From Bdellovibrionota bacterium (lineage in GTDB: Bacteria > Bdellovibrionota_C > UBA2361 > CALJRW01), in assembly GCA_041740355.1 (NCBI GenBank), contig JBGSMD010000006.1, positions 32,001-96,000 of the forward strand: a DNA stretch of 64,000 nucleotides, given 5' to 3'. Under the pieces are notes generated by a model, which saw only the letters and a program-made list of their open reading frames with translations, did no database searches and had not been told where the DNA came from. The position numbers and the translations under genes are program-made. Numbering within the stretch: position 1 is the first letter of the stretch; each line of letters begins with the position of its first letter. This document shows positions 5,193 to 57,772 of this stretch, one piece after another.

Positions 5193-5204
5193 GAATTAAT
5201 AAAA

Positions 5205-6446: not shown

Positions 6447-6448
6447 AT

Positions 6449-22154: not shown

Positions 22155-22160
22155 AAAAAT

Positions 22161-23105
22161 ATGATGGAAAAGGTTTTAAATAAATTTTTAGTTTTGGTTC
22201 CACTTTTACTGATTAGTAATATTGTTCTTGCGGCAGATTGTGATTTTGCCAATAAAAAAACAATATCTTTGGTGGATTCTACTTTTTGCTCGAATAATTT
22301 AGTTACTCAGCTTTCAAAAGCTAAATTAGATGAGTATCGCGATGAGTATAAAAAATATTTTGGTGATGTAACTATTACGCGGGTTGATACTGAAACAACA
22401 GTAGGCTGGACACCAGCTAAAATTGCTCCTACAGAGTCAAGCGTTGGTCACTGCAATGCTCCAAATCAGCTTCCGATTACAACATTAACTTGTGAGATTG
22501 CCACTGAAAAATGGACGGGTTTGATGGAGGTCTTAAAAAAAATCTGCGATGGCGTACCAAACAAAAAACCTGAGGAAATGAAGCTCTCTAGCGATACTTA
22601 CCTTGAAGAATTAGAGGGACTAGCTAAGAAATATAACAGTCTTTCCATTCCTGAAATTAAATTTACAGAATACAATGCTCAAGCTTTTTTAAAGCTCTAT
22701 CGCACATTTACCAATGAACTTAAGTGCGACGATTTTGGAACTGCTAACAAGTTCGATGAAAAGTGGGAGCTCTATGGTAAAGAGGAGGGCAGTTTATCTG
22801 AGGAACAGCGAGATAGTTTTGATTATTCTAACTATTATTTTGTTTATGTGACTAATATTGCCTACCACCAGTCATTAAGCTTGATGTATAATTATGCTAA
22901 TTTAGTAAAAACAGCGATTTCCACAATGAATGAGGAACAGCGCAAAAGTTATGAAGTTTTATTAACTGGCCTAAATGAAAGTTCCGGCGGTAAATTAGAG
23001 GATATTCAAGCTACTCAGATGCAAATTGCCAAAGGTATTTTTGATTTAAACCAAGCAGTTGAAAATAGAGTGAAAAACTATAAGCAACCAGGGTATAAAA
23101 AGTAA
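22161..23105 (+). CDS. Secreted Cys-rich helical hypothetical protein (possible ICE/Tra accessory)
   Basis: Own signal peptide (…ISNIVLA-ADC), six Cys; directly upstream of the TraG-like gene. Confidence 0.65.
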   Translation: MMEKVLNKFLVLVPLLLISNIVLAADCDFANKKTISLVDSTFCSNNLVTQLSKAKLDEYRDEYKKYFGDVTITRVDTETTVGWTPAKIAPTESSVGHCNAPNQLPITTLTCEIATEKWTGLMEVLKKICDGVPNKKPEEMKLSSDTYLEELEGLAKKYNSLSIPEIKFTEYNAQAFLKLYRTFTNELKCDDFGTANKFDEKWELYGKEEGSLSEEQRDSFDYSNYYFVYVTNIAYHQSLSLMYNYANLVKTAISTMNEEQRKSYEVLLTGLNESSGGKLEDIQATQMQIAKGIFDLNQAVENRVKNYKQPGYKK

Positions 23106-23114
23106 TAGGTAAGA

Positions 23115-26100
23115 ATGACTAAAAGGATTTTAACAGGTTTTTGTTTATTTCTGGCAATTATACTAGTTGCGAGTTCGGTCTCTGCGGCACCAGTTATTAC
23201 TACCCGCTGTACGCCAGATGCCAGTGGGCATCTTTCCTCTGGTGAATATTGTTCTTCCGCGACTAACCCGATCACAGCATCCTATGCAACCATGGGCTAT
23301 TGGACTTTGGGCGCATTACTTCAAACATTTGGTGGTCTTGATCAGTTAGGTGGTCTGGAAGATACACCGCTTGGTGGTTCAGGTGCTTACCTAAAAACTA
23401 TTGGTGCTTTTATTTTCATGCTCAGTTTTTTTACTGCTGTGATCATGATGGCTCTTGGTCAACCACCTAAAATGTATGCTTGGTTCGCAGCGGGACCAGG
23501 GATTATGTATTTTTTACTTTTCAACATCGTAGAGCGTCATGGTGTGGCCTGGGAGATCGGAGGAGAAAGACAAGATCAAAGAGTTGTTTGGGAACTAGCC
23601 TATACCGGATTAAATAACCCAATTATTACCTCAACTGCTGGTAGTTTGATTGGACCAGCCTATCAAGAAGTTGGATCAATGCATGGAATTTATGTGCCTT
23701 GGTTTTTTACAAAACTTGATGAAGTTTCCAGTGAAGTAATTCAAAACATTGTAGGTTTAATGGGAGTTAGAGGTGAATTATTGGAAGACCGACATGGTGA
23801 TGGGAGTATGCCAGACCAAACTACTAACTGGCCGTTACTAAGCACCGAGAAATGGGAGCTGATGGAAAACATTACAGGTGCTAAAATTTCAAATAACGAT
23901 CTGCGGGAATTACTAGTGCAGTACATGGCCAGTGAATGTGGTGATAAGATGAGTGAGTTCTTAAACAAGGGTGCCTTTATTAAGGCTTCCACTTCTAATG
24001 GCTTAAACTTACCAAAAACACTATTCACTCTTACTCCTGATACTGTGACAAATGCTGGAACTTCAATATCAACTGATTGTAGTTCTGGAAATGATAAGGA
24101 TAAATTATTATGTGAACTAAATAAGATTCGCCTTCCAACACCCTATGCCTATAAGCAATTACTTAATAAGAAGACTGCTGATAACGCTAACCCAGGATTT
24201 CAAGAATTCGCACTTAAGGATACAATGAGTGCAGGTGCTGATGCAGAATTACAATACCAAGCTTCAACAGTTACTTGTGATGACTGGCTATGGATGTTGA
24301 TGACAGGGATTCGTTGGGAGTCTGCACTCCATTATATTAATTTACGTTCCTCCTTGGAACTACCTGTCGCTGCGGACACTGTAAAAAATGAAGTTATTGG
24401 CACTGATGTGATGGATTTCGTTTTTACTTATGACTGGGAGTTTTTAAAGGCTGATGGAGAAGAAGAGCCGATTGCCACTCCCGATCAAAGGCAACAATTC
24501 ATGTTTCATATGATTATGGCCTACATGATCCGAAATGAGTTTGCCCTAGCCCCTCAGATTGCCGAGCAAAATTTATTACCATCAGCTCGTAGTGCAAATT
24601 ATGCCGAAGAATTTTCGCGAACTACGAATTCTAAAAATAAATTTGCGGAGGTCTACACTTGGGCTAAAATGTTACCACACGTTCAAGGGATGATTTTGTA
24701 TCTTCTGTCTATTGGCTATCCACTGGCCTGTGTAATGATCCTTGTTCCGGGTTGGTGGAAGTGGATGATTACTTGGTCTAGTTTTTATGTATGGGCTAAG
24801 AGCTGGGACGCGGGTTTTGCTGTAATTCAAAATATTGAAAAATCTATTTGGGCTAATCTTGGTAACTCCAACAACGTAGCCTCGCTCAATTACCATATTT
24901 TAAAATTAGATTTCCCTAATGATCAGAATAGTACTAATGCCGTAAACTTTGTATTTGGTCCGGATGGAAAAGCCAGTTCTATCCTGCAAGGTGTTAAGTT
25001 AACCGAAGGTTATGCCCTTGATTTATTTGATCGAGGATTAATTCTTTCTCGTGCTCTTAATCATGATTTAGTAAATGCATATTACATTTATTTAATGTCG
25101 GCGCTTTACTTCGCTGTTCCTGCAGTTACTGGCCAATTATTACTTGGTGCTAAGTCGGGAATGTCCAACATGGTGAAAGAAGGTATTGGTGGAGTATCTT
25201 CCGAAGGTGGATCCGCTGCTCGTTCTGGTGCAGTAGCAGAAGAAACTCGCCATGGAACTATGAACAACATGGCCGCGGAGCAACAGTGGGCTGCTAAAGG
25301 TGCGACTCAACAAGGATTTGCGTTGAGAGCATTACAATCTAAGAATCAAGCTATGGGCTTGGAAATGCAGAGTGGCGCGGCTCAGGCACGTTCAAGTTTT
25401 ATGGAGCAAGGATCACAAAGTCGCTCTGATATGTCACAAATTGCTGAGGCACGAATAGGTCAGAAAATGGGTACATGGGGAGCAGTAAATGCTGAACATA
25501 AAGCGCATATGTCGGCCTTAGGTCGTGTGGGTGGTGCTGGTGAAAGTGAAATGGAAAGATGGGCTAGAAATCAGAATACTGGGACTTCCTCATCTTCACC
25601 ATTGCCTCCAGGTGCTTCTTCTGCAAATCCAAATGCCACACCGAGTGGCGCTCCAACACAAGGAAAGGGTGCAGTGCCACATGTTGCAAATAAAGTTCAG
25701 TCAGCAGCCAAGACTATTTTAGGGCCTGGCGACCGATATGCCTCGGAATATGGTACTCATTTATCAGGTATTTCTGACGCACAATTAGCGGAACAAAAAG
25801 CAGGGCAAAATTTAGCGCTTACGAATCAAGCACTAGATGCGAAGCAGCAAGCTAGAAGTGCGAATGTTGCAGCGTCAATGGCGCAATTTCAACTTGGAAA
25901 TCAGGCCAGAGCATCAACGGAATCGGCGGCACGTTTAACACAGGAAGCTAATTTTGGAGCACGTCAATCTGCTTATAGTGAAGGGGCGAAATTCAGCAAA
26001 CATATGTCTGGGATGATGGCTGCTAGAGGTGTCGTTGCTGGAGCATTTGATCCGAAGGATAAACCGAAGGATTTGGAATCAATCGGAGCTGGTGGGATGT

Positions 26101-26459
26101 TAGGTAATGGATATTCACAAGCTTTTTCTTATCCAAGTAATGGATTTTTAACAGAGTTAGGGGGGCAGGTATCAGCTCTCTCTCCAGCAGTAGCACATGC
26201 AAATCAAAGCTATCAAGCAGGATCCTCTGGATATGGTGTTAATTTTGATAAGGCAGTTGGGAATGTTAAAATGGCTGAAACTTATGCAATGGCATCTGTT
26301 GCTGGTAATGCACTTCTTGATGGGACTGATAAAAAGAAATTTGGTGCTGGATTAGTTAGTACTGTCACAGCAGCCGGAGCTAGAGAGGTAGTAGAAATGG
26401 CTACGGGAGAAGATCGAAATACACGCCGAGATGCATTAGCTCCTGCTTTGAAGAAGTAA
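23115..26459 (+). CDS. TraG-like (TraG_N / VirB6-like) polytopic membrane protein with long Gly/Ala/Ser/Gln-rich tail
   Basis: N-terminal TMs, large periplasmic loop with Cys, second TM block LPHVQGMILYLLSIGYPLAC...FYVWAKSWDAGFAVI, and a low-complexity C-terminal 430 aa, matching F-type TraG architecture. Confidence 0.7.
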   Translation: MTKRILTGFCLFLAIILVASSVSAAPVITTRCTPDASGHLSSGEYCSSATNPITASYATMGYWTLGALLQTFGGLDQLGGLEDTPLGGSGAYLKTIGAFIFMLSFFTAVIMMALGQPPKMYAWFAAGPGIMYFLLFNIVERHGVAWEIGGERQDQRVVWELAYTGLNNPIITSTAGSLIGPAYQEVGSMHGIYVPWFFTKLDEVSSEVIQNIVGLMGVRGELLEDRHGDGSMPDQTTNWPLLSTEKWELMENITGAKISNNDLRELLVQYMASECGDKMSEFLNKGAFIKASTSNGLNLPKTLFTLTPDTVTNAGTSISTDCSSGNDKDKLLCELNKIRLPTPYAYKQLLNKKTADNANPGFQEFALKDTMSAGADAELQYQASTVTCDDWLWMLMTGIRWESALHYINLRSSLELPVAADTVKNEVIGTDVMDFVFTYDWEFLKADGEEEPIATPDQRQQFMFHMIMAYMIRNEFALAPQIAEQNLLPSARSANYAEEFSRTTNSKNKFAEVYTWAKMLPHVQGMILYLLSIGYPLACVMILVPGWWKWMITWSSFYVWAKSWDAGFAVIQNIEKSIWANLGNSNNVASLNYHILKLDFPNDQNSTNAVNFVFGPDGKASSILQGVKLTEGYALDLFDRGLILSRALNHDLVNAYYIYLMSALYFAVPAVTGQLLLGAKSGMSNMVKEGIGGVSSEGGSAARSGAVAEETRHGTMNNMAAEQQWAAKGATQQGFALRALQSKNQAMGLEMQSGAAQARSSFMEQGSQSRSDMSQIAEARIGQKMGTWGAVNAEHKAHMSALGRVGGAGESEMERWARNQNTGTSSSSPLPPGASSANPNATPSGAPTQGKGAVPHVANKVQSAAKTILGPGDRYASEYGTHLSGISDAQLAEQKAGQNLALTNQALDAKQQARSANVAASMAQFQLGNQARASTESAARLTQEANFGARQSAYSEGAKFSKHMSGMMAARGVVAGAFDPKDKPKDLESIGAGGMLGNGYSQAFSYPSNGFLTELGGQVSALSPAVAHANQSYQAGSSGYGVNFDKAVGNVKMAETYAMASVAGNALLDGTDKKKFGAGLVSTVTAAGAREVVEMATGEDRNTRRDALAPALKK

Positions 26460-26503
26460 GATAAAAGATTAATATTAGGAATTTTGTGTAGAAAAAGATT
26501 TAC

Positions 26504-27550
26504 CTAATCTAAGCCGACACTCAATACTAACCATCTCCGCTCCGAAAAACCACCGGAGCGGGATGCCGCCATAGATGAGGTCATCTTAGTTTGAAAGATA
26601 AAATGAAACTGTCCATCAACTAGAGCTGATTCAGGGGGATGGGGGTCGCGCGCCTTATCTTTCACAGCGGTGTGAATTAAACTATTAAAAATTTCCGAAC
26701 CAGAATTAGTGACAAGTTTTGTACTTACCAGATTTCCCTCAGGATCTAGTTTTGCAATGACTGTGGCATTTCCTGTAATTTTCTGAACCTCTTGATAGTT
26801 TAACTGTTTCCAGGCACGATTTTTTAGTTCATTAAAAACTTGAATGGCAACTCGCCTAACAAAAACAGCATATTTAGAAGCTTTTGTATTTAATAAAGTA
26901 ATTTCACCTTCACGAATATTTGGTAGTAAATCGGGACTACCACCTTGTCCTGCAAAAAGACTTCCAGCTAAAGCGGAATTTAAATTATTTTGAGTTTTAG
27001 TTTGAAGATCCAGAGCTTTTTCCCTTGGCTCAATTTGTTTTTCAAATTTTATCTCGGGAGTAATTTTTTTGCCAGGTGTTTCTTGGGAAGTTTTTTCTTT
27101 TACTGGTAGAGGAGTTTCCGTTTTTTTTGTTACGGACGTTTTCTTAATCATTTCGGTTTTAGAACTCGGTTTAGCCAGTGTTTGTTTTGGAATTGGTTTC
27201 CCACCATCTCCACGTTTAATACTTTCTTCTAGAATGGAATTGTTTTGCTCAGCTTCTTTAAATTCTTGCTTAGGCATTACTTTATTGACCTTTTCTGATT
27301 CGCTAACAATTTGTTTCTTATTATTAAATAGCTCTGGGGAAAGTTCCACAGCTAAAACTTTTTGAATCTTAGGAAGATTATCTTTAGAGAATAAGCCTGT
27401 AAAATTGAGGTAGACTAGAAAAAATAAAATGATGTGGAATAAGGCCGAGACGGTAAGTGCTAAGAGTTGCACTTCGCGGTCAGTAGAACGTAAGATAATT
27501 AGTCTATTTGGAGTATTGGTCCATTTTTGTTCAAAGTTTAAGTCTGGCAC
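26504..27550 (-). CDS. TonB/TolA-family energy transducer
   Basis: TM with SALFH (SxxxH) motif, Lys/Pro-rich linker, TonB-C-like domain (LDPEGNLV...NSGSEIFN). Confidence 0.8.
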   Translation of the reverse strand: MPDLNFEQKWTNTPNRLIILRSTDREVQLLALTVSALFHIILFFLVYLNFTGLFSKDNLPKIQKVLAVELSPELFNNKKQIVSESEKVNKVMPKQEFKEAEQNNSILEESIKRGDGGKPIPKQTLAKPSSKTEMIKKTSVTKKTETPLPVKEKTSQETPGKKITPEIKFEKQIEPREKALDLQTKTQNNLNSALAGSLFAGQGGSPDLLPNIREGEITLLNTKASKYAVFVRRVAIQVFNELKNRAWKQLNYQEVQKITGNATVIAKLDPEGNLVSTKLVTNSGSEIFNSLIHTAVKDKARDPHPPESALVDGQFHFIFQTKMTSSMAASRSGGFSERRWLVLSVGLD

Positions 27551-46750: not shown

Positions 46751-47134
46751 TTAATTTAGTTCAACGGCAACTAATAATTTTCTAACTTCGCTCAGTAATA
46801 TATCCGGTTTGCATGGTTTAACTAGGACGCTGTTACAACCAGCACTGATTGCTTCTTGATGAATCTCTTCTTCGTCCATTGCGGAAAATGCAATAATTGG
46901 ACATTTAACTCCCAGGGTTCTCAGTCGTTTTACTGTTTCAGTTCCTGATAATTTTGGCATCATCAGATCCATCACAATTAAATCGGGATGATCCTTGTTC
47001 TTTTCCAGCTCACTTATAGCTAGGAGTCCATTAATCGCCTGATCTACCTGAAAACCATCATTTTCAAATAGTATTTGAATTAGATCTAATTGAGATACGT
47101 TATCATCCACTAGTAAAATCCGTTTTCTTTTCAT
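46751..47134 (-). CDS. Single-domain response regulator (receiver)
   Basis: LLVDD, MDLMMP, KP motifs. Confidence 0.92.
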   Translation of the reverse strand: MKRKRILLVDDNVSQLDLIQILFENDGFQVDQAINGLLAISELEKNKDHPDLIVMDLMMPKLSGTETVKRLRTLGVKCPIIAFSAMDEEEIHQEAISAGCNSVLVKPCKPDILLSEVRKLLVAVELN

Positions 47135-47481: not shown

Positions 47482-48936
47482 ATGTTTGCTATAGATATTT
47501 TACCTTTAGTTGATTCCGAGCATCATTTGCCTGAAAGGTTTTTTCGTGGGCAACCATCTGTGATCATTGGCAGTGATCTTGAATGTCAGTTGCAACATCC
47601 CTTATTGAGAAATTTAAATTTTAACGTTTTAATTCAGAAGTTAGCTGGAAGTCAGTTTGAATGTCGCCAAATTTTTCATGAAAATTCTGATCGGGTTGGT
47701 TTTCAAGATATTTACGAATCTACTGCTAAGCTTAATCTTGGAACTGTCAAGATTCTGATAACAAGTATTGATGCTGATTTACTAGTCAAGGAGAACGAGG
47801 CTCCGGATCAAGCAGGCTATCGCTTGTTAAAACAGGCCGTCACTTCACAACTTACGACATTTCCCGCCTTAGAAATTAATAAACCATATAAAGCTGTAGT
47901 TTCTTTCAATCCCGATCAAGTACTAACTGTTGGTCGAGCGGATTATCATCATTTAGTGATTGAACAGTTCGATGTTTCTTCCGATCATGCCAGATTTGGC
48001 TTTGCAAATAATAAATATTGGGTTGAGGATTTAGGTTCTACCAATGGAACCTTTCTTAATAATCAACAAGTCTCTGGGAAGATATTTTTCGAACCGGGAG
48101 ACTCTGTTTTACTTGGAGCTAGCACAAAGATCACGGGATTGAAAAAAGTTGTTCAAAAAATAGTGGAGTCAGTGATTCCAGAACAAGTTTCAGTTAATAT
48201 CCCTCAAGAATCAGATCAATTACAGACCAACTCGTTACAAACATCTTATCCTGAGACTGAAGTGGAAGATCATCTTCCGACGGAAGAGCTTTCACTATCA
48301 CGGGTAGAAGAACTATTGGTCGATGTCCGTTATCCAGTATTGCTGGCTGTCAATAAGATTGCTCGTCCAGGGCGTTTAATTTTAAAGAAAGATCAAACTG
48401 TTTTAATTGGTCGTGATGCAAAATCAGATTTATGGCTAGGGGCACCCTATGTTTCTCGTGAGCATAATCAAATAACTTATTTAGGGGATGGTGAAATTCG
48501 AATTCAAGATCATAGTTCTAATGGTACTGCATATTCCGAAGGTATGATTCCGGCTGGCGGCGAATTACTTGTTAGTAATAAGTCTGAGATTTTACATTAT
48601 GGTTCTGGTTTAGCAGTTGCACTATGTTTTAACCAAGAAGACGAAGAAATATTTGTAGCTTCTGGTGGTCGTGCCGATGCTTTTATAGAAAATTTGCCAA
48701 CACCAATCAAGGAGCAAGTTTCTCCGCTGATGGCACCAAAGACTGCTACTTCCTCGAAAGAGAAGACATACCGTCCGTTACGTTCAAATGACGTTGTAAA
48801 AAATGGAGTAGTAGGAAAAATTCTTTATCGCTTCCTCAGTTTTGACATAAAAAGAAAGGTTTTCATTTGTTGTTTAAGCCTGCTAGTCATTGCGATATTT
48901 GTCTTATTAATATCAATAATCTTAACGTTTTTGTAA
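47482..48936 (+). CDS. Multi-FHA-domain protein with C-terminal membrane anchor
   Basis: One degenerate and two intact FHA domains (GR...SSDH...STNGT; GR...SREH...SSNGT); the protein ends in a hydrophobic helix. Confidence 0.85.
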   Translation: MFAIDILPLVDSEHHLPERFFRGQPSVIIGSDLECQLQHPLLRNLNFNVLIQKLAGSQFECRQIFHENSDRVGFQDIYESTAKLNLGTVKILITSIDADLLVKENEAPDQAGYRLLKQAVTSQLTTFPALEINKPYKAVVSFNPDQVLTVGRADYHHLVIEQFDVSSDHARFGFANNKYWVEDLGSTNGTFLNNQQVSGKIFFEPGDSVLLGASTKITGLKKVVQKIVESVIPEQVSVNIPQESDQLQTNSLQTSYPETEVEDHLPTEELSLSRVEELLVDVRYPVLLAVNKIARPGRLILKKDQTVLIGRDAKSDLWLGAPYVSREHNQITYLGDGEIRIQDHSSNGTAYSEGMIPAGGELLVSNKSEILHYGSGLAVALCFNQEDEEIFVASGGRADAFIENLPTPIKEQVSPLMAPKTATSSKEKTYRPLRSNDVVKNGVVGKILYRFLSFDIKRKVFICCLSLLVIAIFVLLISIILTFL

Positions 48937-49195: not shown

Positions 49196-50263
49196 ATGTC
49201 AGCAGATAGTACAGAATTAACTTTTATTAGATGTTCATCATGTCGTAGCTTAGTGCCCGCAATGTCTACACGTTGTCGTATGTGTGGCGCAGATTTGCAA
49301 GCTAAGAAACCAACAGCTACTCCCGAGGCAACAGCCCCCAAGGAGAAAATTGAAGCAAAAGCACCAGCGATAGTTGCCAGCACGGAATTAGATCCCTTGA
49401 ATGAATTTTTAAGTGAAGAAGATCAATTCGATGATGTTGATATTGTTGATGATCAATTAGAAGCTTCAGATAAAGAATCTGATGAAGAATTCTCCGCTGG
49501 CAATCCTTCTGAATTTAGGGATGACTTTGAGGATGATTTTGATGAGGAACAAGCTATCAAAGAATTAGATAGTTTATTAGAAGAATTAAATGCGACTTCA
49601 GTTGCCACGGCAGTACCTATTCCAGTGGTTGCAACTCCTGTAGTACCAGTTGTAACTAAAGCAACAAAGTCTGAGCTGATTGATGTTTTAGAGCCAAAAG
49701 TTGTTCCGAAAAAAACCGAGACGAAAATCGAACCTGTCAAAGTTATGACTCCGGTTGCAGCTTCAGTAATTCCGCAAAATTTTAGTTCACCTGAACCAAA
49801 AATTCCAACAAAAGCTGAGATTAAAGAAGATATTATAAAAGAGGAGAATATTATGGAAAAAGAATTAAGAGCAGTGGAGAGTAAGGTAACTTCCATTAAG
49901 TCTGCTGGTATTAAACAACAACCTGATAAGCAAACAGCTTTATTCGGCTGGTTTGTTAGTTATCAAGAAGCGGTGGGCGTTTCTCGTGAAATTCGCGAAG
50001 GTAAATTTTTTGTTACCGCAAAAAGTTTAAAACCAAATGACCTAATTATCGAAGATGATAGTGTGTCTACGCCCCATGCGATGATTACAGTAAGTCATGA
50101 ACTTGGCTTTCAAATTCAAGATTTAATGAGTGAACATGGGTTGTATATAAAAAAACATGGATCTAAGAAGTATGAAGTGATTGATGATATTGAAGTTGTG
50201 GAGAATGGGGACTGGATTAGGTTCGGTAATATAGAATTCATGGTAGTAATAATGCCCGTCTAA
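49196..50263 (+). CDS. Zinc-ribbon / acidic linker / degenerate FHA protein
   Basis: CSSC...CRMC N-terminus, Asp/Glu-rich then Pro/Val/Lys-rich linker, C-terminal FHA-like domain (VSTPHA...DLMSEHG). Confidence 0.75.
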   Translation: MSADSTELTFIRCSSCRSLVPAMSTRCRMCGADLQAKKPTATPEATAPKEKIEAKAPAIVASTELDPLNEFLSEEDQFDDVDIVDDQLEASDKESDEEFSAGNPSEFRDDFEDDFDEEQAIKELDSLLEELNATSVATAVPIPVVATPVVPVVTKATKSELIDVLEPKVVPKKTETKIEPVKVMTPVAASVIPQNFSSPEPKIPTKAEIKEDIIKEENIMEKELRAVESKVTSIKSAGIKQQPDKQTALFGWFVSYQEAVGVSREIREGKFFVTAKSLKPNDLIIEDDSVSTPHAMITVSHELGFQIQDLMSEHGLYIKKHGSKKYEVIDDIEVVENGDWIRFGNIEFMVVIMPV

Positions 50264-50555: not shown

Positions 50556-51398
50556 ATGAAAATAATTAAACTTACTTTTTTACTATTAATTCTTCTTTTT
50601 ACTAGTAGCTGTCGTGACGTCCAAGTCGCTGAAAATATTAATCAGTACCAGGCACATCAAATTATCAATAAGTTAAACTCAGCGGGAATAGACTCCAAGT
50701 ATTTTGCCAGCAATAACGGCAAATCTTATTCAGTTTCCGTGACCCAAAGAAATTATTTACCAGCAGTGGGAATTATTGCTTCTTCCGGAATTTTACCCAA
50801 GGTTGATTCAGATTTTAAAGAATTAACCGAGCCTAAAGGGTTCTTATCAAGCAATAAATCTTTTGATTTATTAAGACTAGACCGTGCTATCGCTGTAGAG
50901 TTGGAAGATGCTCTGCTAGGAGTTCCAAGTATCACCAACGCAAAGGTTGTTGTCCGTTTAAATAGTTTACCTGAAAACCAAATGCCCTCTGTCTCGATTA
51001 TTGCTGGAACACGTGATCAACAAACTGATCTTAGTTACATTACAGATTTAGTAAAAAATGCTATTCCCGGAATCCAAGACGATCATATTAAGCTAATCAT
51101 AGAGCGACTACCTGAATCTGAAGCTGATTTTTCGCTGATTGGAACAACACAGGCTCAGGGGAAGTTGTTGGCTGTCCCCTTAGTTCCGTTTTTAATCTGG
51201 CAGGTCCCTGCCGGGGTTGAATTAGAATTAGCTTGGACGGCAATTATAATTCTGATTTTTGCATTACTAGTGGGTTATTTTTTTGCAACACTTTTTCGTA
51301 AGCCGAAGTCTCGCGAACGTAATTCACTAAGTTTGCCAGAGTCAAGCTCTTTAGCGATAGGATTACAAAAAGATTTGAATGAGGAGGATTTTCGATGA
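50556..51398 (+). CDS. sctJ: SctJ/YscJ/FliF-family inner-membrane ring lipoprotein
   Basis: Lipobox TSSC, QAHQIINKLNSAGI, ELEDAL..VPSITNAKV, PSVSII, LVKNAIPGI...IKL, C-terminal TM. Confidence 0.85.
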   Translation: MKIIKLTFLLLILLFTSSCRDVQVAENINQYQAHQIINKLNSAGIDSKYFASNNGKSYSVSVTQRNYLPAVGIIASSGILPKVDSDFKELTEPKGFLSSNKSFDLLRLDRAIAVELEDALLGVPSITNAKVVVRLNSLPENQMPSVSIIAGTRDQQTDLSYITDLVKNAIPGIQDDHIKLIIERLPESEADFSLIGTTQAQGKLLAVPLVPFLIWQVPAGVELELAWTAIIILIFALLVGYFFATLFRKPKSRERNSLSLPESSSLAIGLQKDLNEEDFR

Positions 51399-51640
51399 GC
51401 CCAGAGAATCAAGGAATGGTTTTCAATAAATTAGCTCCAGAGCAACAAGCTTTAGTCGCAATAGCTGTCTTGCTTGACGGTTTTGATAGTCCCTTTTTTT
51501 TAGGAGAGGATTTTAAGTTTGAGGATCAATTGCGGAAGGCCGCAGAAGAAATTGTAAAAGATGCTCCTGCGCAAAGGTTGCCATATGTGGCAACGTTACT
51601 GCGTCGAGCTTTAAATGAGTTAAGGAATCAAGATGAGTGA
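51395..51640 (+). CDS. Small T3SS-cluster protein (FliG-N/SctK-like position)
   Basis: Translationally coupled between sctJ and the sctQ-like gene; LAPEQQALVAIAVLLDG weakly resembles the FliG N-terminus. Confidence 0.5.
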   Translation: MSPENQGMVFNKLAPEQQALVAIAVLLDGFDSPFFLGEDFKFEDQLRKAAEEIVKDAPAQRLPYVATLLRRALNELRNQDE

Positions 51641-52628
51641 GAATTGGCAATTAGCTGACGAAATTGAAGAACTTGATCCCAAGATAATTAAATATGGAAT
51701 TGGTTTTCTAAAATCACGTCCCCAGAATTGGATTCCTAACTTCTCAACTTTTTGGACTCCATTACTAGATCTTTTAAATTTCGAGGTAGCAGTATTAGAT
51801 ATTCAGCCAACATTTGAATTCCCATTAAGTGGAAGTGGAGTTTGGTTAGGAGCCTTTGAAAATAATAAAATTGGAATTAGTTGTGAACCCTTTGTCGCTA
51901 AATATTTAGCTAGTCTTTTTATTACAGATATTGATGCGGAGACAAGTAAGATTTTAGAGGATTATCTTGCTAGACGATTAATGCGTTCGCTCGTTGCTTC
52001 CTGGACTGGGCCGTCACTAAGTAATTTTAAATATTTTGGTGCCAGTTCCATTAAAGATTTCGATCCAAGTGCTGGTATTAAAATTACAATGTCGATAAAC
52101 GGTAGGCAAGTAACGCTTTGGTTATTAATTGAAGAGCTTTTACTCAAAAAATTGGATAATTTGTGGAGAAGGCAAACCACAACATTTAATATTAAAAAAT
52201 TAGAGGCTAGAAAATACCAATTAATTCTATTTACACAGCAAATCCAACTAGACGATTTAGAGTCATTATTGGTAATAGGAAATAAGATTTACCTTACTGG
52301 CTTGGATCCTAAGTATTTAGCAATGCGGGATGTGATTAATGACTCCACCTGGAAAGTTAAGCTTTACAGTAGCACCGATCAATTAGTAATGAAGATTCTT
52401 GAATCAAACGTTGCATATCAATTAGATCTAAGAGATTTATTAATGCGGGTGACGTTGCCTGAAATTACATTAAGTACTGAACAGCTACAGTTAAATAGTA
52501 GCGAATCATTCTTGCCTACTGGCTTAGCCCTGGGAACAGAGCTTATGATTAAGGTTTCTGATGAAACTGTGGCCCAGGCTAAGTTAGGCAAAGATACAAA
52601 CGGTTACTATGCTGAAATTCTAAACTAG
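51633..52628 (+). CDS. Putative SctQ/FliM-like sorting-platform protein
   Basis: Position before sctR; C-terminal region resembles SPOA repeats (IQLDDLESLLVIG, IKVSDETVAQAKLG). Confidence 0.55.
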   Translation: MSENWQLADEIEELDPKIIKYGIGFLKSRPQNWIPNFSTFWTPLLDLLNFEVAVLDIQPTFEFPLSGSGVWLGAFENNKIGISCEPFVAKYLASLFITDIDAETSKILEDYLARRLMRSLVASWTGPSLSNFKYFGASSIKDFDPSAGIKITMSINGRQVTLWLLIEELLLKKLDNLWRRQTTTFNIKKLEARKYQLILFTQQIQLDDLESLLVIGNKIYLTGLDPKYLAMRDVINDSTWKVKLYSSTDQLVMKILESNVAYQLDLRDLLMRVTLPEITLSTEQLQLNSSESFLPTGLALGTELMIKVSDETVAQAKLGKDTNGYYAEILN

Positions 52629-52698: not shown

Positions 52699-53271
52699 AT
52701 GTTAGAATTAGTGTTTATTATGTTGGTGTCCAGTGCTTTTATTAAGCTTGTAACGACACTCAGTATTTTTCAGTACGGATTAGGGCTTAAGAATTTTTCC
52801 TTTAGCATTATAGTTTTTCTATTTAGTCTAGTTTTAACCCTTTTTGTAATGCAACCTACCTGGGATAATTTGGGAGGTTGGCAAGGAGTAAGTAAAGCTA
52901 CCCCCGAACAAGTTGTTATCTTTCAAAGTCAAATTGATCCATTTGTTACTAAGCATAGTGATCCTGAAACGCTTGCAAAGTTACAAGCAATCTATCAAAA
53001 AAATCAGCCTGAAGTTTCAGTGACAGTTATTCCTTGGTCAGTAAAGATTACGGCCTTTATGATTACGGAACTAAAAGAAGCTTTTTATATTGGACTTTTA
53101 TTAATCATACCTTTTATTTTCCTAGATTTACTGACAGTTAATATTTTAATGGCGCTGGGAATTACTCAAATTTCAGCTTTAACTGTAGCACTACCCTTCA
53201 AATTGTTAATTTTTTATCTTTTCGATGGGTGGCAGTTATTAACTGAGAAATTGCTAAGCTTTTACAATTAA
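52699..53271 (+). CDS. sctR: SctR/FliP-family export-gate protein (divergent)
   Basis: SAFIKLVTTLSI, LTLFVMQP, AFMITELKEAF.IG...PFIFLDL...NILMALG...LPFKLLIFYLFDGW. Confidence 0.9.
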   Translation: MLELVFIMLVSSAFIKLVTTLSIFQYGLGLKNFSFSIIVFLFSLVLTLFVMQPTWDNLGGWQGVSKATPEQVVIFQSQIDPFVTKHSDPETLAKLQAIYQKNQPEVSVTVIPWSVKITAFMITELKEAFYIGLLLIIPFIFLDLLTVNILMALGITQISALTVALPFKLLIFYLFDGWQLLTEKLLSFYN

Positions 53272-53276
53272 ATAAA

Positions 53277-53525
53277 ATGACTCCAGACTTATTAATTGAA
53301 TCATTAATTTATGCTGTACGTATTTTTTTATTGGTAACAATTCCACTTTTAGCCATCTTGACCTTGGCTGGTACTATTTCAGGAATGCTCCAAGCAATAA
53401 CAGGGATACGGGAAAGTTTACTGAATTATTTGACTAAGCTAATTGCCTTGTTTGCTGTGTTTTATTTCTTTTTGCCAAGCTTCTTACAAACTTTGGAAGA
53501 AATGTTTAATAACTACTACTTATGA
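53277..53525 (+). CDS. sctS: SctS/FliQ-family export-gate protein (divergent)
   Basis: 82 aa, P...G...GMLQAITGIRE..L.Y..K; follows sctR. Confidence 0.82.
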   Translation: MTPDLLIESLIYAVRIFLLVTIPLLAILTLAGTISGMLQAITGIRESLLNYLTKLIALFAVFYFFLPSFLQTLEEMFNNYYL

Positions 53526-54097
53526 CACCATTAGTACTTAGTGGAGTAATAGTTTACTGTTGGGGACGGATTGGTTTTCTCTTGGGGTTAATATTTCTAA
53601 TTAGCTTACTTATTTATTTTACAGGCGAGCTGGGACTTTCGATCACACCTTTAGAAAGGCTCTTGTTAGTATCTTCCGTAATGAGCCTTCCGCTCAGTTT
53701 TTATTTAGCTGGTTCATATCTAGATAATTATTTAGCGGATAAATTTTCTTTCCAGTTACCTTTCGCGCTGGTGTTTCTTTTGTCTGGTAGTTATCTTTTA
53801 TTAGAGCAAGGACTTTTAATAGATCAACTTGACCATACATTAAATTTAATTAATGCCGCAGCTGATAATTCCTTCTTAATGATTCTGTTCGAAATAATTA
53901 GTAAGATAATTATGACAACCACAGGCCTAATGCTAATTGTTTTATTAATCGCGCTAATTTTTATTGTGCCACTTGCTTGGCTGATGAAAAATTCTCAATT
54001 GAATTTTAGTTGGAGTATCCCCAGTCTTAATTTCATATTGATATTATTTTTTTTAGCATCCGGCTACCAGTTAATTTTATCTAAATTATTATCCTAA
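53522..54097 (+). CDS. SctT/FliR-like polytopic membrane protein (short, divergent)
   Basis: Very hydrophobic, located between sctS and the sctU-like gene; AGSYLD and C-terminal QLN...SIP patterns. Confidence 0.6.
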   Translation: MTPLVLSGVIVYCWGRIGFLLGLIFLISLLIYFTGELGLSITPLERLLLVSSVMSLPLSFYLAGSYLDNYLADKFSFQLPFALVFLLSGSYLLLEQGLLIDQLDHTLNLINAAADNSFLMILFEIISKIIMTTTGLMLIVLLIALIFIVPLAWLMKNSQLNFSWSIPSLNFILILFFLASGYQLILSKLLS

Positions 54098-54772
54098 ATG
54101 GCTTTTAGCTTTCTAAATAACAGGCAGCTGCAAGACCTTCGTCGGCAAGGAATTTTCCAATATTCTTCTTGGACTAGTCGGCTTATTGTCTTAGTCAGTC
54201 TCTCTGGTTATTTTTATTTTTCTGGGGATAAGTTAATTCCTATGCTATTAAGTTTTTATCAAAATCTTTTCTCAATTCATGATTTAAACTTAATGGTAGT
54301 GGGGCAATTTTGGAGTAAGCTGTTATTTGATTTTATATTCATCCCAACATTACTTTTAATACTGTCAATTTTAATTGGGGGGTTATTACAGACTAAGTTT
54401 TATTTAAGATTTAATAGTCTGGCATTTGACTTGGGGCAACTTGGATTAAAGGCACAGTTGCAAAAAATTAAGCCAATTAAACGAATTTTATTTGGGCTAG
54501 CATTTCCGATACTATTTTTTATTCTATTAATGTTAACAATAAGTTGGGTAAAAAATCTACTTATTGCTTTTTCCTGGGCGCAGGAGGAATCTCTCGTTCA
54601 GTACTTATCTCTCTTCAAATCAATTGCTAGTCAAATTGCCATCGTTGCTGTATTATTAATATTCTTAGCAACGATCCTCAACTGGTTCTATTTCCGGCTT
54701 GAACATCGAAATATTGATCATGATTTGGCAGAAGATTCTGCCAATCAGAGTGCTATTGATAGTATTAGATAA
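54098..54772 (+). CDS. SctU/FlhB-like membrane domain only
   Basis: LQDLRRQG...S N-terminus, four TMs, GGLLQTKF; ends before the NPTH domain. Confidence 0.7.
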   Translation: MAFSFLNNRQLQDLRRQGIFQYSSWTSRLIVLVSLSGYFYFSGDKLIPMLLSFYQNLFSIHDLNLMVVGQFWSKLLFDFIFIPTLLLILSILIGGLLQTKFYLRFNSLAFDLGQLGLKAQLQKIKPIKRILFGLAFPILFFILLMLTISWVKNLLIAFSWAQEESLVQYLSLFKSIASQIAIVAVLLIFLATILNWFYFRLEHRNIDHDLAEDSANQSAIDSIR

Positions 54773-55014
54773 TGCCATACCCAAAAAAAGACTTAATATC
54801 GCATGCTCCTTTATTCTTGTTATTACCAGAACGTCGCTCTTTGGATGGCTTTGAGAAGTATCTGTCTGCTTTTTATTTAAGGCTGGAAAAACTTAAACAG
54901 TTAGAGCAAGAAGGGGATCAGTTATCAAGCGAAGATTTATCTGAACTAACAATGCTACGGCAAGTCGTCGATTGGCTTACACTCCATTCAGAAATTGAAA
55001 GTAATAGGAATTAA
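54772..55014 (+). CDS. Small hypothetical protein (SctX-like position)
   Basis: Coupled to the sctU-like gene and upstream of the TPR protein. Confidence 0.55.
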   Translation: MPYPKKDLISHAPLFLLLPERRSLDGFEKYLSAFYLRLEKLKQLEQEGDQLSSEDLSELTMLRQVVDWLTLHSEIESNRN

Positions 55015-55019
55015 TAAAA

Positions 55020-55439
55020 ATGAGTTTATTAGATGCTAAGTCCAGTAGTTATTCCGAGGAAGAGTTGGACTTGCTTTACTCTTTGGGTCTTTTTTATTTA
55101 GAAGCGGGACATTATCGTTCGGCAGAAATGATCTTTCAGGGCTTAACCGCAGTAGCCCCCAGTTTTGCTGATAGTTGGTTAGCAGCTTCAGCTACATTCT
55201 TTATGTTAGGTAATTTTGATCAAGCTAAACGCCATGCGCATCAAGCAATGCGTCTAAATCCCCATGATATTCAAGTACAATTACTTTATGTGACAATCTT
55301 ATTGTCTCAAGGTGAATTATCTGAGGCAGGAACTTTACTTGGTGAAATTAAAGAGCAGATTGATACTCGGGTGATTCAGAATCCCGATCAGATACGTTAT
55401 TTTAAAGCACAGTTAGCAAGATTCGAATTTGGTCAGTAA
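55020..55439 (+). CDS. TPR protein, SctY/SycD(LcrH)-like T3SS chaperone
   Basis: LYSLGLFYLEAGHYRSAEMIFQGL..P, two to three TPRs, 139 aa. Confidence 0.75.
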   Translation: MSLLDAKSSSYSEEELDLLYSLGLFYLEAGHYRSAEMIFQGLTAVAPSFADSWLAASATFFMLGNFDQAKRHAHQAMRLNPHDIQVQLLYVTILLSQGELSEAGTLLGEIKEQIDTRVIQNPDQIRYFKAQLARFEFGQ

Positions 55440-55499: not shown

Positions 55500-55850
55500 T
55501 TACAACTTTTCTTTGTCATCATCTTCATCATTGTCACCCGAGTCAACTAATGCTGCATCGATAGTTTGCTTTACAGCTAATTCAATTGCCTCGCGTTGAG
55601 CTTGAGGTATTTTTGAGTTAGAAAAAAGCTTTTCAGCTTCTTGCTCTACCATTTGTAATAATTCGCTACGTTCTTGGAAAGACATTTCCCTCGTAGGCAT
55701 TCGACTAGTGCTAGAGACGCCAGTAATTGCTCCAACTTTAGAAGTTTTATTAACCTGAGAAATTGCTTCGGATTTACGTACCGAATTTAAGGCATCAGTT
55801 TTATTAATACCCTTAATTTTTTTATCATTTGAATCAACACCATCAACCAT
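55500..55850 (-). CDS. Small hypothetical protein downstream of a sigma factor
   Basis: Disordered N-terminal half, helical C-terminal half; 28 nt after the sigma gene. Confidence 0.65.
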   Translation of the reverse strand: MVDGVDSNDKKIKGINKTDALNSVRKSEAISQVNKTSKVGAITGVSSTSRMPTREMSFQERSELLQMVEQEAEKLFSNSKIPQAQREAIELAVKQTIDAALVDSGDNDEDDDKEKL

Positions 55851-55878: not shown

Positions 55879-56664
55879 TTAGTACTGTCCTGAAAATTCT
55901 GAAACTTTTTTTGTAAATATTCCAAAATCTTCTTGATTTGCTAAGACCATATTGGCATCTTTTAGTCCTGGCCTAATACGCGGGCAATCTAATTCTTTAC
56001 CTGTAGAAACACTTTTTTGTAGATACTCCATGATGACTTTGTGTTCTCGAATTACATTTAACTCATCGGTATTCCATTCCGTTGCAACACCACGAAGCGA
56101 TAGTCCTTCCCAGTAGACCTTCCAGACTAGTAATTGATGCAGAGGTTGTAGATCGGAGAGATTGATGATCAATTGTTTAAACTCAGTTGCTTCTTCCGGA
56201 TTGGAATCTTGAATTCCATGTTTAGTAGATATTAAACAGGCACTAATTAACAACTGTTGAATTCCAACGCGGACACCTTGTTCCGAATCATCATCACTCG
56301 GCAAAACACCTGATCTAATTTGAGGATATAATTCAAATAACTCAGCAGAAATTGCGCGGGCTAATCTTTCTGTGCGTTTAGAATTGCGACTATCTTTTTC
56401 CCAAGATTTACTATTACGGGCAGCTTCAGTAGATGCTTCATGAATTCTGCGGCGGGCATAACTCTTAAATGGCACACCTAAATTAGGATCAAATCTGCGA
56501 GCACAAAAAATTAATGCTTCAAAAGCAGCTCCATCTAGTCCATCATCTTGCCAATGTAAACTCCATCCCCGAGCAACCGATTTGGCAATTTTCTCTGCCC
56601 AAATTTGGTGTTCAAGTACTAACTCATTGGCTTCATCCATGCTTAAAATCGTTGTTTCGGTCAT
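55879..56664 (-). CDS. Divergent FliA/WhiG-like sigma-70 factor
   Basis: Region 2 ARRFDPNLGVPFKSYARRRI; region 4 VYWEGLSLRGVA. Confidence 0.78.
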   Translation of the reverse strand: MTETTILSMDEANELVLEHQIWAEKIAKSVARGWSLHWQDDGLDGAAFEALIFCARRFDPNLGVPFKSYARRRIHEASTEAARNSKSWEKDSRNSKRTERLARAISAELFELYPQIRSGVLPSDDDSEQGVRVGIQQLLISACLISTKHGIQDSNPEEATEFKQLIINLSDLQPLHQLLVWKVYWEGLSLRGVATEWNTDELNVIREHKVIMEYLQKSVSTGKELDCPRIRPGLKDANMVLANQEDFGIFTKKVSEFSGQY

Positions 56665-56986: not shown

Positions 56987-57772
56987 ATGTTTGTTATGAG
57001 TAATAGTCGTTCAGAAGAAGCTAAAACTAAAGCTAAAATATATGATTTCGCAAAAATAGTTGAGCGTAAGGAATCAATTGCGACCCACCTAAGTATCCAT
57101 GAAAAGAATGGTTTAATCATGAAAAACAGAATTCAGGGCCGTAAATTAGCCTGTAGCATGCTAAGAAAATGGAACTGTCGACTAGATTTAGAAGAAGTTG
57201 ATAGTATCGTAGACTTATCTCTCTGCGAAGCAGTAAAGTATTTTGACCCGGCCAAAGGAGTGAATTTTCTAACTTTCCTTTTCTATCATTTACGTGGAAA
57301 TTTAATTCGTACAATTAAAATCCAAGCGAATCAAACTGCTATTCCTTTAGAGTTTACCGATGAGAATATGGAAAGTGGCTATATCGGTCATGAAAGAATT
57401 AATACTGCTGATGCTTTTGAAACTTTTGGAACTGTCCAGAAGTCTCCCGACCAGCAATTACAAGAAGGCCAATTTTTCGAATTAACAAAACTTGCTTGTG
57501 AAAAATTAACGGATCTGGAGCGAGAAATTATCAAAAATGTTTTTATTCATGAGGAGCAGGTAACCCAACTTGCACAAGATTTAAATTATAGTCGCTGTCA
57601 TATTTCCAGATTAAAAACAGCTACGATTAATAAATTAAGATCAGAGATCGAAAAAATTACAGGCGAGAAAATTTCTGTATCGGAAGGAGTAGATAGTCCT
57701 CGTCGAGCACTAGATGTTAGACATCGAGTTCGTGTGCACAAGGTTAGGAAGGTAAAAAAGATAGCTGCTTAA
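56987..57772 (+). CDS. Divergent FliA/SigB-like sigma-70 factor
   Basis: Region 2 LCEAVKYFDPAKGVNFLTF...LRG; region 4 LTDLEREII...LAQDLNYSRCHISRL. Confidence 0.82.
   Translation: MFVMSNSRSEEAKTKAKIYDFAKIVERKESIATHLSIHEKNGLIMKNRIQGRKLACSMLRKWNCRLDLEEVDSIVDLSLCEAVKYFDPAKGVNFLTFLFYHLRGNLIRTIKIQANQTAIPLEFTDENMESGYIGHERINTADAFETFGTVQKSPDQQLQEGQFFELTKLACEKLTDLEREIIKNVFIHEEQVTQLAQDLNYSRCHISRLKTATINKLRSEIEKITGEKISVSEGVDSPRRALDVRHRVRVHKVRKVKKIAA

Follow-up and report, generated by a model that had tools for sequence, protein, structure and literature searches.

A conserved methionine-less gate loop in an SctR/FliP-family protein encoded by a stripped-down type III-like gene cluster of a Bdellovibrionota bacterium

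Two adjacent genes for SctR- and SctS-like export-gate proteins were analyzed in a Bdellovibrionota bacterium (GenBank assembly GCA_041740355.1). They lie in a stretch of 64,000 nucleotides (contig JBGSMD010000006.1, positions 32,001 to 96,000 of the forward strand), which is called the window here and whose coordinates are used wherever no other contig is named. The methionine gasket, the SctT plug and the salt bridges of SctS have been presented as the universal sealing mechanism of type III gates (PMC8239009). In Salmonella, Met185-187 of SpaP together with Phe212 of SpaR form the M-gate, Gln41/43/45 of SpaQ with Gln208 of SpaR form the Q1-belt, and Gln44/45 of SpaP form an ancillary Q2-belt that is poorly conserved in FliP (PMC7943601, Miletic 2021), while the three gate methionines are conserved in 99, 87 and 99% of about 2500 FliP sequences (PMC8239009, Hüsing 2021). 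A preliminary description of the two genes, made from the sequence letters alone, had claimed that both the gate and the belt motifs are lost on an otherwise intact scaffold; what it said of the gasket and the Gln-belts in general agrees with these papers. The features in question (lengths in amino acids, aa) are the following:

52699–53271, + strand: SctR/FliP-family pore subunit of a Met-less clade, an open reading frame (ORF) of 190 aa, assigned by its Pfam FliP match, phmmer, and AF2/Foldseek
52774–52806, + strand: Q2-belt loop position, SctR residues 26-36 (YGLGLKNFSFS), aligned to A-L-G-x-Q-Q-x-P-P of FliP
53155–53175, + strand: M-loop or M-gate position, SctR residues 153-159 (LGITQIS), aligned to (L/M)-G-M-M-M-(L/V)-(S/P)
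53277–53525, + strand: SctS/FliQ-family subunit, 82 aa (Pfam Bac_export_3, E 2e-10; FliQ in the PDB, E 3.3e-5)
53391–53417, + strand: Q1-belt loop position, SctS residues 39-47 (QAITGIRES), placed by alignment to FliQ

The Pfam FliP profile (PF00813) matches SctR over its full length (E 9.8e-36, 123.9 bits vs. a cut-off of 26.9), residues 6-185 corresponding to profile positions 10-191 of 191, and SctS exceeds the cut-off of PF01313 (Bac_export_3; 40.9 vs. 25 bits). SctR stays below the NCBIfam equivalog cut-offs for yscR (TIGR01102, 108.5 vs. 208.6 bits) and fliP (TIGR01103, 109.8 vs. 217.45 bits) as well as that of the EscR/YscR/HrcR subfamily model (117.3 bits, cut-off 179). All NCBIfam models for SctR, FliP, SctS and FliQ score far below cut-off, which marks the two proteins as very divergent within their families. 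In the public annotation SctR has only 140 aa, starting at Met51, so that the first helical hairpin and the Q2 loop (52699-52848) are missing; the 190-aa ORF was preferred because its first 50 residues can be aligned with FliP and with every orthologue.

At the gate position SctR has no Met-Met-Met triplet and reads I-T-Q instead. When aligned by phmmer with four solved FliP chains from the PDB, LMALGITQIS pairs column for column with LMAMGMMMLS or LMALGMMMVP, and GLGLKNFS pairs with ALGLQQTPS. In the AF2 model (24 orthologues as input, pLDDT 90.3) SctR adopts the FliP fold and superposes by Foldseek on FliP (9k29_A, E 1.4e-9, TMq 0.81; 6s3l_B, TMq 0.83) and on SpaP/Spa24 (TMq 0.73-0.77, with 0.77 for SpaP in 6pem_4), residues 153-159 being non-helical and located between the last long helices. 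Because this modelled loop and the superposition on FliP fix the gate position, the Met motif is not hidden elsewhere in the protein. Neither is base composition or AT-richness the cause of its loss, since the second FliP paralogue of the same genome, on contig C64, reads GMMM (and keeps QQVP).

Forty-one related genomes were searched, and FliP-family matches were found in all of them (41/41), mostly as three paralogues each. The MMM triplet is present in none of the 26 window-orthologue sequences (window included), three of which have a lone first-position Met; typical loops are GITQ, GVTQ, GMQQ and GIAN. The background consisted of 80 diverse FliP/SctR sequences from named genomes, among the matches listed, all of them canonical and with no clade member listed: 58/80 have MMM, 17 more have M-x-M, and the first Met is kept in 80/80. 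A profile of the 24 orthologues retrieved 650 proteins at E ≤ 1e-30 from 1.84 billion representatives, and loop statistics were taken from the best 150 of these 650 (50%-identity representatives). Position 155 carries V in 67 of them and I in 48, T stands at position 156 in 78 and Q at position 157 in 97; VTQ (32) and ITQ (24) are the most frequent triplets, and two Met occur together in a single row (MVM).

The comparison set for the phylum-level lineage of GTDB comprised 124 genomes; 64 genomes of the order (own genome included) had a profile match at E ≤ 1e-40, two of these being other paralogues on inspection. Twenty further candidates yielded 18 Met-less sequences (12 from other orders, six from divergent members of the order) and two sequences of the other paralogue. 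Outside the order but within the class, 12/12 genomes are Met-less, with the loops GLTQ, GLVH, GLSQ, GLER (four times), GVNK, GLLQ, GSEH, DFNR and GYTA. The G-L-E-R loops were found in genomes G051, G073, G070 and G068 (loci L189, L194, L196 and L197); they are a natural counterpart of the charge pair M-E-R carried by a motile Salmonella FliP suppressor (PMC8239009, Hüsing 2021).

In a tree of 96 rows, a branch with an SH-aLRT support of 96 splits off 44 clade rows from flagellar, injectisome-like (AscR, HrcR, rhizobial, Desulfovibrio-type), Myxococcota and second-paralogue rows; in a tree of 115 rows, the 26-row core has a support of 99. Branches within the clade are long, and the trees are unrooted. 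Comparison with a genome of the same genus gave non-synonymous distances (dN) of 0.09-0.15 with saturated synonymous distances (dS), and dN/dS ratios of 0.043 for the SctJ-like gene, 0.072 for x81 (a conserved 81-aa protein), 0.032 for the SctQ-like gene and 0.079 for SctS; for SctR itself dN is 0.109 and dS was not computable. With the ratios of these four genes far below 1, the cluster genes are under purifying selection. Identities within the genus differ between the proteins, with 53% for the SctT candidate and 50% for SctU vs. 84% for SctJ, SctQ-like and SctR, 88% for x81 and x80, and 78% for SctS. On the alignments, the replacement of the Met-gate is a family trait and not drift, and the substitutions flagged in the preliminary description are conserved rather than random among the 26 orthologues, the 150 representatives and the other orders.

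In order to see how much of the scaffold remains, the 54 positions with a conservation of 80% or more among 85 canonical FliP/SctR sequences were compared with 157 clade members. Thirty-five of the 54 are kept, including ELKxAF, PF..D, LPxK and F..DGW, and 19 are lost, eight of them in the Q2 loop (27, 31, 34, 35) and the M-loop (155, 157, 158, 160). The change is not purely lumen-selective, since the other 11 of the 19 fall outside the two loops. The idea of a selective loss of lumen-facing residues on a conserved scaffold thus holds for the scaffold and for both SctR loops, but not for selectivity. Likewise the Met and QQ residues are gone, as had been claimed, but 'lost' is too strong a word for motifs that were replaced: new residues are conserved in the clade (G27 at 0.96, F35 at 0.69, Q157 at 0.68, and also L167), and the clade consensus is GxGLxGxGFG in the Q2 loop and G-[V/I]-T-Q-[L/I]-S in the M-loop.

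The belt loop of SctS, QAITGIRES, aligns by HMMER with QAATQINEM, QAITSIQDQ and QAATSINEQ of solved FliQ chains, and its G-I-R-E-S is neither the injectisome pattern Gln-x-Gln-x-Gln nor the flagellar pattern Q/S-x-Q/N-E-Q/M. Thirteen SctS orthologues keep Q39, T42, an acid at position 46 (E in seven, D in six) and a base at position 54 (K in six, R in seven), the window having E46 and K54; they vary at positions 43 (S/G/A), 45 (R/N/Q/H) and 47 (P/S/G), and depart from the flagellar consensus at positions 43, 45, 47 and 48. The belt positions also vary naturally among 59 flagellar FliQ sequences (S at 43 in 15, N at 45 in 20, M at 47 in 13). Asp at position 46 occurs in 6/13 clade SctS vs. 1/59 flagellar FliQ, which echoes the association of Asp at FliQ-46 with polar M-loops given in the figure legends of Hüsing 2021 (PMC8239009).

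All three motif readings of the preliminary description, together with the intact ELKEAF, LPFKL and DGW, were borne out once Pfam FliP and Bac_export_3 and the solved FliP and FliQ chains placed the stretches on the M-gate and Gln-belt loops. Its Gln-belt part is weaker than its Met part: the residues do differ, but the Q2-belt is ancillary, a Gln-to-Ser change in the Q1-belt of SctS is tolerated (PMC7943601, Miletic 2021), SctS retains Q39, T42, E46 and K54, and QQ is not universal in the Q2 loop, where Salmonella FliP reads ALGTPSAPP, a point that counts against giving weight to the missing glutamines.

SctR and SctS are embedded in a gene cluster with the following members:

46751–47134, − strand: response-regulator receiver protein, the upstream neighbour (Pfam Response_reg, E 5.9e-26), with a homologue upstream of the FHA genes in many of 20 related loci
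47482–48936, + strand: SctD-like protein with two FHA domains and a C-terminal membrane anchor (Pfam FHA, E 9.5e-25, two stretches; Yop-YscD_cpl, 49 bits, cut-off 33.2)
49196–50263, + strand: second FHA protein, with a zinc-ribbon-like N-terminus, an acidic middle and a C-terminal FHA domain (Pfam FHA, E 3.6e-6), conserved in related loci
50556–51398, + strand: SctJ-like inner-membrane ring lipoprotein (YscJ_FliF, E 2e-9, 38 bits, cut-off 24.4; TIGR02544, 61.7 bits, below 161.95)
51395–51640, + strand: conserved 81-aa protein (x81), no Pfam or NCBIfam match, orthologues in 10/20 related loci
51633–52628, + strand: SctQ-like protein with two C-terminal SpoA (FliN-type) domains, 331 aa, the single sequence having no Pfam match
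53522–54097, + strand: probable SctT/FliR equivalent, very divergent, 191 aa, in the SctT position and with an all-helical AF2 model
54098–54772, + strand: SctU/FlhB membrane domain only, 224 aa (Pfam Bac_export_2, E 1e-10, profile positions 10-205 of 335)
54772–55014, + strand: conserved 80-aa protein (x80), no family match, orthologues in 17/20 related loci
55020–55439, + strand: tetratricopeptide repeat (TPR) protein resembling class II chaperones of type III secretion systems (T3SS), by TPR Pfam matches and conserved position
55500–55850, − strand: conserved 116-aa acidic protein between the TPR chaperone and the sigma genes, 12 orthologues aligned
55879–56664, − strand: sigma-70-family factor A (weak Pfam Sigma70_r2; TIGR02479 FliA_WhiG, 30.6 bits, far below cut-off), conserved position
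56987–57772, + strand: sigma-70-family factor B (Pfam Sigma70_r4 and r2; weak similarities to SigB/F/G and FliA), conserved position

Gene order was read in 20 related loci, some of them ended by contig edges. The conserved core runs from the response regulator through the double-FHA SctD-like protein, the second FHA protein, SctJ, the 81-aa and 331-aa proteins to SctR and SctS, and continues with proteins of about 200, about 220 and 80 aa, the TPR protein, the 116-aa acidic protein and the two sigma-70-family genes. The SctD-like gene keeps its place in related loci; in its protein the hydrophobic stretch lies at the extreme C-terminus, and there is no periplasmic ring domain. The SctQ-like assignment comes from a 16-orthologue profile that matched YscQ-C (3uep_A, E 0.0011, 203-269), FliY (5xrw_C, 0.0028) and FliN (5xrw_A, 0.029, 283-340). 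For the TPR protein both chaperone models of NCBIfam stay below cut-off, SctY with 37.8 vs. 70 bits and LcrH_SycD with 37 vs. 104.8 bits. The cytoplasmic autocleaving (NPTH) switch domain of PF01312 is absent from SctU, which ends at residue 224, and the following 80-aa ORF has no family match in Pfam or NCBIfam, leaving no switch-domain substitute downstream; all 16 SctU orthologues recovered in the 20 loci are short (ORFs of 197-242 aa). There is neither an SctN ATPase nor an SctC secretin in the cluster (Pfam/NCBIfam scans), nor a needle gene, the search for the latter being confined to the cluster.

The 191-aa protein is probably SctT, to judge from its position, its size, a hairpin-containing model, weak TM matches and its Atlas neighbours. 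Its model (pLDDT 79.9) is all-helical with a C-terminal hairpin, and the highest TMq values among the Foldseek matches listed are 0.39 for FliR (6s3s_F) and 0.34 for SctT (8axk_F). Bac_export_1 is found in each of the three Atlas clusters nearest to it (scores 0.76-0.78), which is a lead and no more, and VIA-align returned generic hairpins only. A complex prediction for two SctR and one SctT candidate, run without controls, scored 0.01 with a mark of 0.32 and is no evidence either way. The sequence SQLNF in its hairpin loop was considered as the PQxNxF motif of FliR and dropped, only the same-genus orthologue having anything similar (SRLN).

In the 116-aa acidic protein, the N-terminal half is repetitive and probably disordered, the C-terminal half conserved, helical and acidic. 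Its location would suit an exported regulator, but the idea of an FlgM-like anti-sigma factor is speculative, as 0/12 members match FlgM or convincingly any other Pfam family. Elsewhere in the window, large ORFs without Pfam matches at E ≤ 1e-6 follow one another at 3543-8680 (549, 413 and 743 aa) and at 20449-27550 (351, 217, 314, 1114 and 348 aa).

The genome is 97% complete. Among the sequencing runs listed, DNA of the cluster occurs in three runs of one study, one of which may be its source, and no RNA run is listed for it. No FliI/SctN ATPase was found above cut-off genome-wide, the five matches to ATPase models being two F1 alpha/beta pairs and Rho, and no flagellin, rod or hook proteins or FliM/N domain (FliMN_C) were found either. 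The F-type alpha/beta pairs lie at C64:66328-72203 and C26:18849-22987, one of them of the 'alternate F1F0' (N-ATPase) type according to NCBIfam. Two secretin-family genes, not assigned to a secretin type, are located elsewhere in the genome, outside the cluster. Most relatives carry three FliP-family and three FHIPEP genes, including a canonical flagellar pair, and those retaining the flagellar FliP/FlhA pair also have the window-type paralogue; the genus (G000, G001), with two FliP-family and two FHIPEP genes only, appears to have lost the flagellum.

The two FHIPEP (SctV/FlhA) genes are located on other contigs, as is a second gate set:

C30:40133–54777 (locus L145:4134–18775): Tad-type pilus operon with a full-length FHIPEP (693 aa) as the penultimate gene
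C20:70739–75774 (L146): second SctV module, with a FliA/SigF-like sigma factor, an SctJ-like lipoprotein, a 96-aa ORF, a 613-aa FHIPEP and a TPR protein
C64:18079–25200 (L147): second gate set, with FliP (GMMM), FliQ, FliR and a 245-aa FlhB membrane domain only, without J or V

The operon on C30 reads PP2C, FHA, Ser/Thr kinase, CpaE, RcpC/CpaB, CpaF, TadB, TadC, FHIPEP and a 798-aa pseudokinase, an order common to G079, G016, G028 and G039 (complete) and G123 (partial), and its FHA protein is homologous to the second FHA protein of the window cluster (49196–50263). The FHIPEP on C20 lacks profile positions about 302-461, a part of the cytoplasmic domain. The set on C64 also includes three small unknown genes, a 1021-aa GAF histidine kinase and an 82-aa ORF. 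By complementarity, the arrangement suggests two pairs, the C64 set with the C20 module and the Tad-linked SctV with the window cluster. The latter pairing is supported by the one-contig genome G079, because this has only a flagellar FliP/FlhA pair and, besides it, a window-type SctR and a Tad-linked SctV. A phyletic profile was tried for the SctV partner and set aside, as C20-type FHIPEP matches 122/124 genomes at E ≤ 1e-60 and cannot discriminate. These C20-type matches are full-length in most of the 124 genomes, including some without a strong window-type SctR match.

Among known systems, the gate of flagella (FliPQR-FlhB; Salmonella 6F2D, Vibrio 6S3L) gave the best sequence and structure matches, and it shares ELKxAF, PF..D, LPxK, F..DGW and the E46/K54-type pair of FliQ with the window proteins. 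It differs in what is missing here: the window SctR has no M-gasket, QQxPP, signal peptide or long periplasmic insert, SctU has no FlhB C-domain, and no rod, hook, filament, C-ring or FliI genes were found in the genome. With the injectisome gate SctRST(U) (Salmonella SpaPQR 6PEP/7AH9, Shigella 6R6B), the window has in common a short SctR without a signal peptide and, as neighbours, SctJ, the SctQ-like protein, the SctD-like FHA protein and the class-II-like chaperone. It lacks, however, counterparts of Met185-187, Gln44/45 and the Gln-x-Gln-x-Gln ladder of SctS (PMC7943601), the cluster has no secretin or needle gene and the genome no SctN, and the clade stands outside the injectisome group in both trees.

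Another close known system is T3SS* of Myxococcus xanthus ('Myxo' NF-T3SS, Abby & Rocha 2012; PMC3459982), which is described as comprising SctD, J, I, Q, RSTUV, N, L and LcrH chaperones with no secretin or needle (PMC10433427). In neither does the locus encode a needle or translocon or the cluster a secretin, and both have SctD/J/Q/R/S/T/U/V-type parts, LcrH-like chaperones and FHA proteins (PMC10433427, PMC12075869); the link to a Tad-type pilus is functional in T3SS* (Kil) and only genetic here (PMC10433427, PMC12075869). In contrast to T3SS*, where SctN and SctL are present, neither was found here, and the Myxococcaceae-type locus inspected encodes an SctU of full length and, next to it, SctV, whereas here SctU is truncated and SctV lies in the Tad operon. 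Myxococcota SctR triplets (11 rows, among the matches listed) are MQT or MQS in four (the Myxococcaceae type, where the third Met is already gone), MQM in six and MMM in one, the first Met being kept in 11/11, unlike the Met-less clade with mostly V or I at this position, and the two groups are not joined in either tree. By analogy the system probably works most like the Myxococcus T3SS*; membership in that group is not supported, as SctN/L, SctU, SctV and the trees differ. In a record titled Comamonas sp. KCTC 72670 (L059), whose organism label looks doubtful, SctR groups tightly with Myxococcaceae rows and the R-S-T/U-V locus is Myxococcus-like. A further resemblance is to Bradymonabacteria, non-flagellar predators described as having YscRSTUV-type genes only, up-regulated during predation (PMC7460792); they belong to a different phylum, and the comparison covers the gene set.

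Polar M-loops, some without Met, have also been described among FliP variants, linked to Asp in the FliQ salt bridge; that set is of flagellated bacteria with Met1 and Met3 99% conserved, whereas here a whole non-flagellar paralogue family is Met-less (PMC8239009). A literature search, with subscription journals outside its scope, found no paper on a Met-less SctR/FliP family or on the T3SS of this lineage. The new element would be the conserved replacement of the gate, which may overlap with the 'polar motifs without methionine' in the tree of Hüsing (PMC8239009, its figures and supplements lying outside this comparison).

We consider it fairly probable that the SctR/SctS gate still forms an R5S4T1-type channel and exports protein by the proton-motive force via the Tad-linked SctV. 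SctR and SctS would then belong to an inner-membrane export gate that is specific to this lineage and descends from type III secretion, in a needle-less system for which no dedicated ATPase was found and which would have been inherited vertically within a small Bdellovibrionota-like phylum-level lineage. In this paralogue family the hydrophobic Met gasket has given way to a conserved beta-branched/polar loop (with G-L-E-R or G-L-T-Q variants in sister orders) and the QQ-x-P-P loop to a Gly-rich one, while the Gln ladder of SctS is thinned. Protein would pass over the inner membrane through an R5-S4-T1-type helical gate, driven by the proton-motive force via the SctV of the Tad operon, and the substrates would be delivered either into the periplasm or to the Tad machine, a route already suggested for Myxococcus Kil/T3SS* (PMC12075869, PMC10433427). 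The SctQ-like protein and the LcrH/SctY-like TPR protein are predicted substrate-handling parts. It is proposed that a system which builds neither rod nor needle and does not change over from early to late substrates has less need of the deformable hydrophobic gasket suited to very fast export. In its place a ring of Thr/Gln or Glu/Arg, acting as a polar constriction held by hydrogen bonds or charge pairs, would seal the gate jointly with the T and U subunits. A more far-reaching version, in which the Met-less SctR/SctS are a third, ancient export-gate lineage beside those of flagella and injectisomes, without its own ATPase, needle or switch domain, with a polar or charge-paired constriction ([V/I]-T-Q, L-E-R) and feeding a Tad machine whose operon encodes the matching SctV, is conceivable, and we put it forward tentatively.

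Several points weigh against such an exporting gate. In Salmonella FliP, the pore leaks ions when S, T, N or Q stands at gate positions 2 and 3, and motility is lost when a large polar residue occupies gate position 1 (PMC8239009), so that by analogy a T-Q gate might be leaky or need another seal. The SctT candidate has no Pfam (PF01311) or NCBIfam match, an hhalign probability of 1.1% against 47 FliR sequences and no Foldseek match at E ≤ 0.001 (SctT/FliR chains at E about 2). The pairing with the Tad-linked SctV is likely, resting on one informative genome and on complementarity, and in G040 a C20-type SctV module lies 4 kb from the SctR gene. Gate assembly and protein export are here predictions from sequence and not direct observations, and the lack of an ATPase and of the SctU docking domain also fits a role other than export. 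Such a role, which we regard as rather unlikely, would make the gate a structural nucleus or membrane anchor (e.g., a Tad platform), or else a regulated conduit or sensor for ions or small molecules that is connected to the FHA, kinase and phosphatase proteins and the two linked sigma factors. It would account for the absence of a T3SS ATPase and of rod genes from the genome and of a needle gene from the cluster, for the SctU without its docking/switch domain, for the alteration of all three substrate-contacting constrictions, for the ion leakage of polar M-loops in Salmonella (PMC8239009) and for the FHA proteins, response regulator and sigma genes as fixed neighbours; it leaves without obvious use, however, an SctQ-like sorting-platform protein and an LcrH/SctY-like chaperone kept under strong purifying selection. 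Full-length FHIPEP partners are also retained, the pore-lining loops are themselves conserved and not free to vary, and the needle-less T3SS* of Myxococcus is needed for prey lysis (PMC12075869).

That the genes are instead the drifting remnant of a lost flagellum or injectisome, under relaxed selection, is disfavoured as very improbable. The genome's flagellum is indeed lost, no NCBIfam model reaches its curated cut-off, divergence is rapid in T and U, and terminal branches in the clade are about 1 change per site vs. 0.1-0.5 for flagellar FliP. Decay, however, is hard to reconcile with intact ORFs and the same gene order in 20 related loci, with dN/dS values of 0.03-0.08 for J, x81, Q-like and S, with a replacement motif that is conserved across 150 representatives and across orders, or with relatives that bear flagellar FliP/FlhA and carry the window-type paralogue as well. 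A product of misalignment, of a wrong start codon or of AT-rich composition, to which the public call from Met51 without the Q2 loop and the low G+C (0.34-0.37) might point, is already refuted: in the four HMMER alignments to solved FliP, flanking identities (PF..D, LPFK, DGW) stand on both sides of the loop, the structural superposition has a TMq of about 0.8, the first 50 residues of SctR find their counterparts in every orthologue and in FliP, and the C64 paralogue of the same genome reads GMMM and QQVP.

As consequences of the altered gate the preliminary description had suggested a different cargo, an open or plugged pore, or a non-secretory role, and the sequence is compatible with each of them. 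In reading the cluster as a whole, the genomic context (needle-less, with no ATPase found, a switch-less SctU and the Tad link), which that description did not cover, is more informative than the gate sequence. A selectively maintained paralogue family that keeps the salt-bridge pair without the gasket is a natural experiment on the purpose of the gasket, and [V/I]-T-Q and L-E-R are ready-made loop variants for tests in model systems. Needle-less T3SS* are known functionally only from Myxococcus predation, and the finding bears on how such machines move cargo because the gate change coincides with the loss of needle, ATPase and switch domain and with a genetic Tad link. If the more far-reaching reading of a third export-gate lineage were true, type III translocation as such would not require the M-gasket, which would instead be adapted to the fast export of rod, hook or needle.

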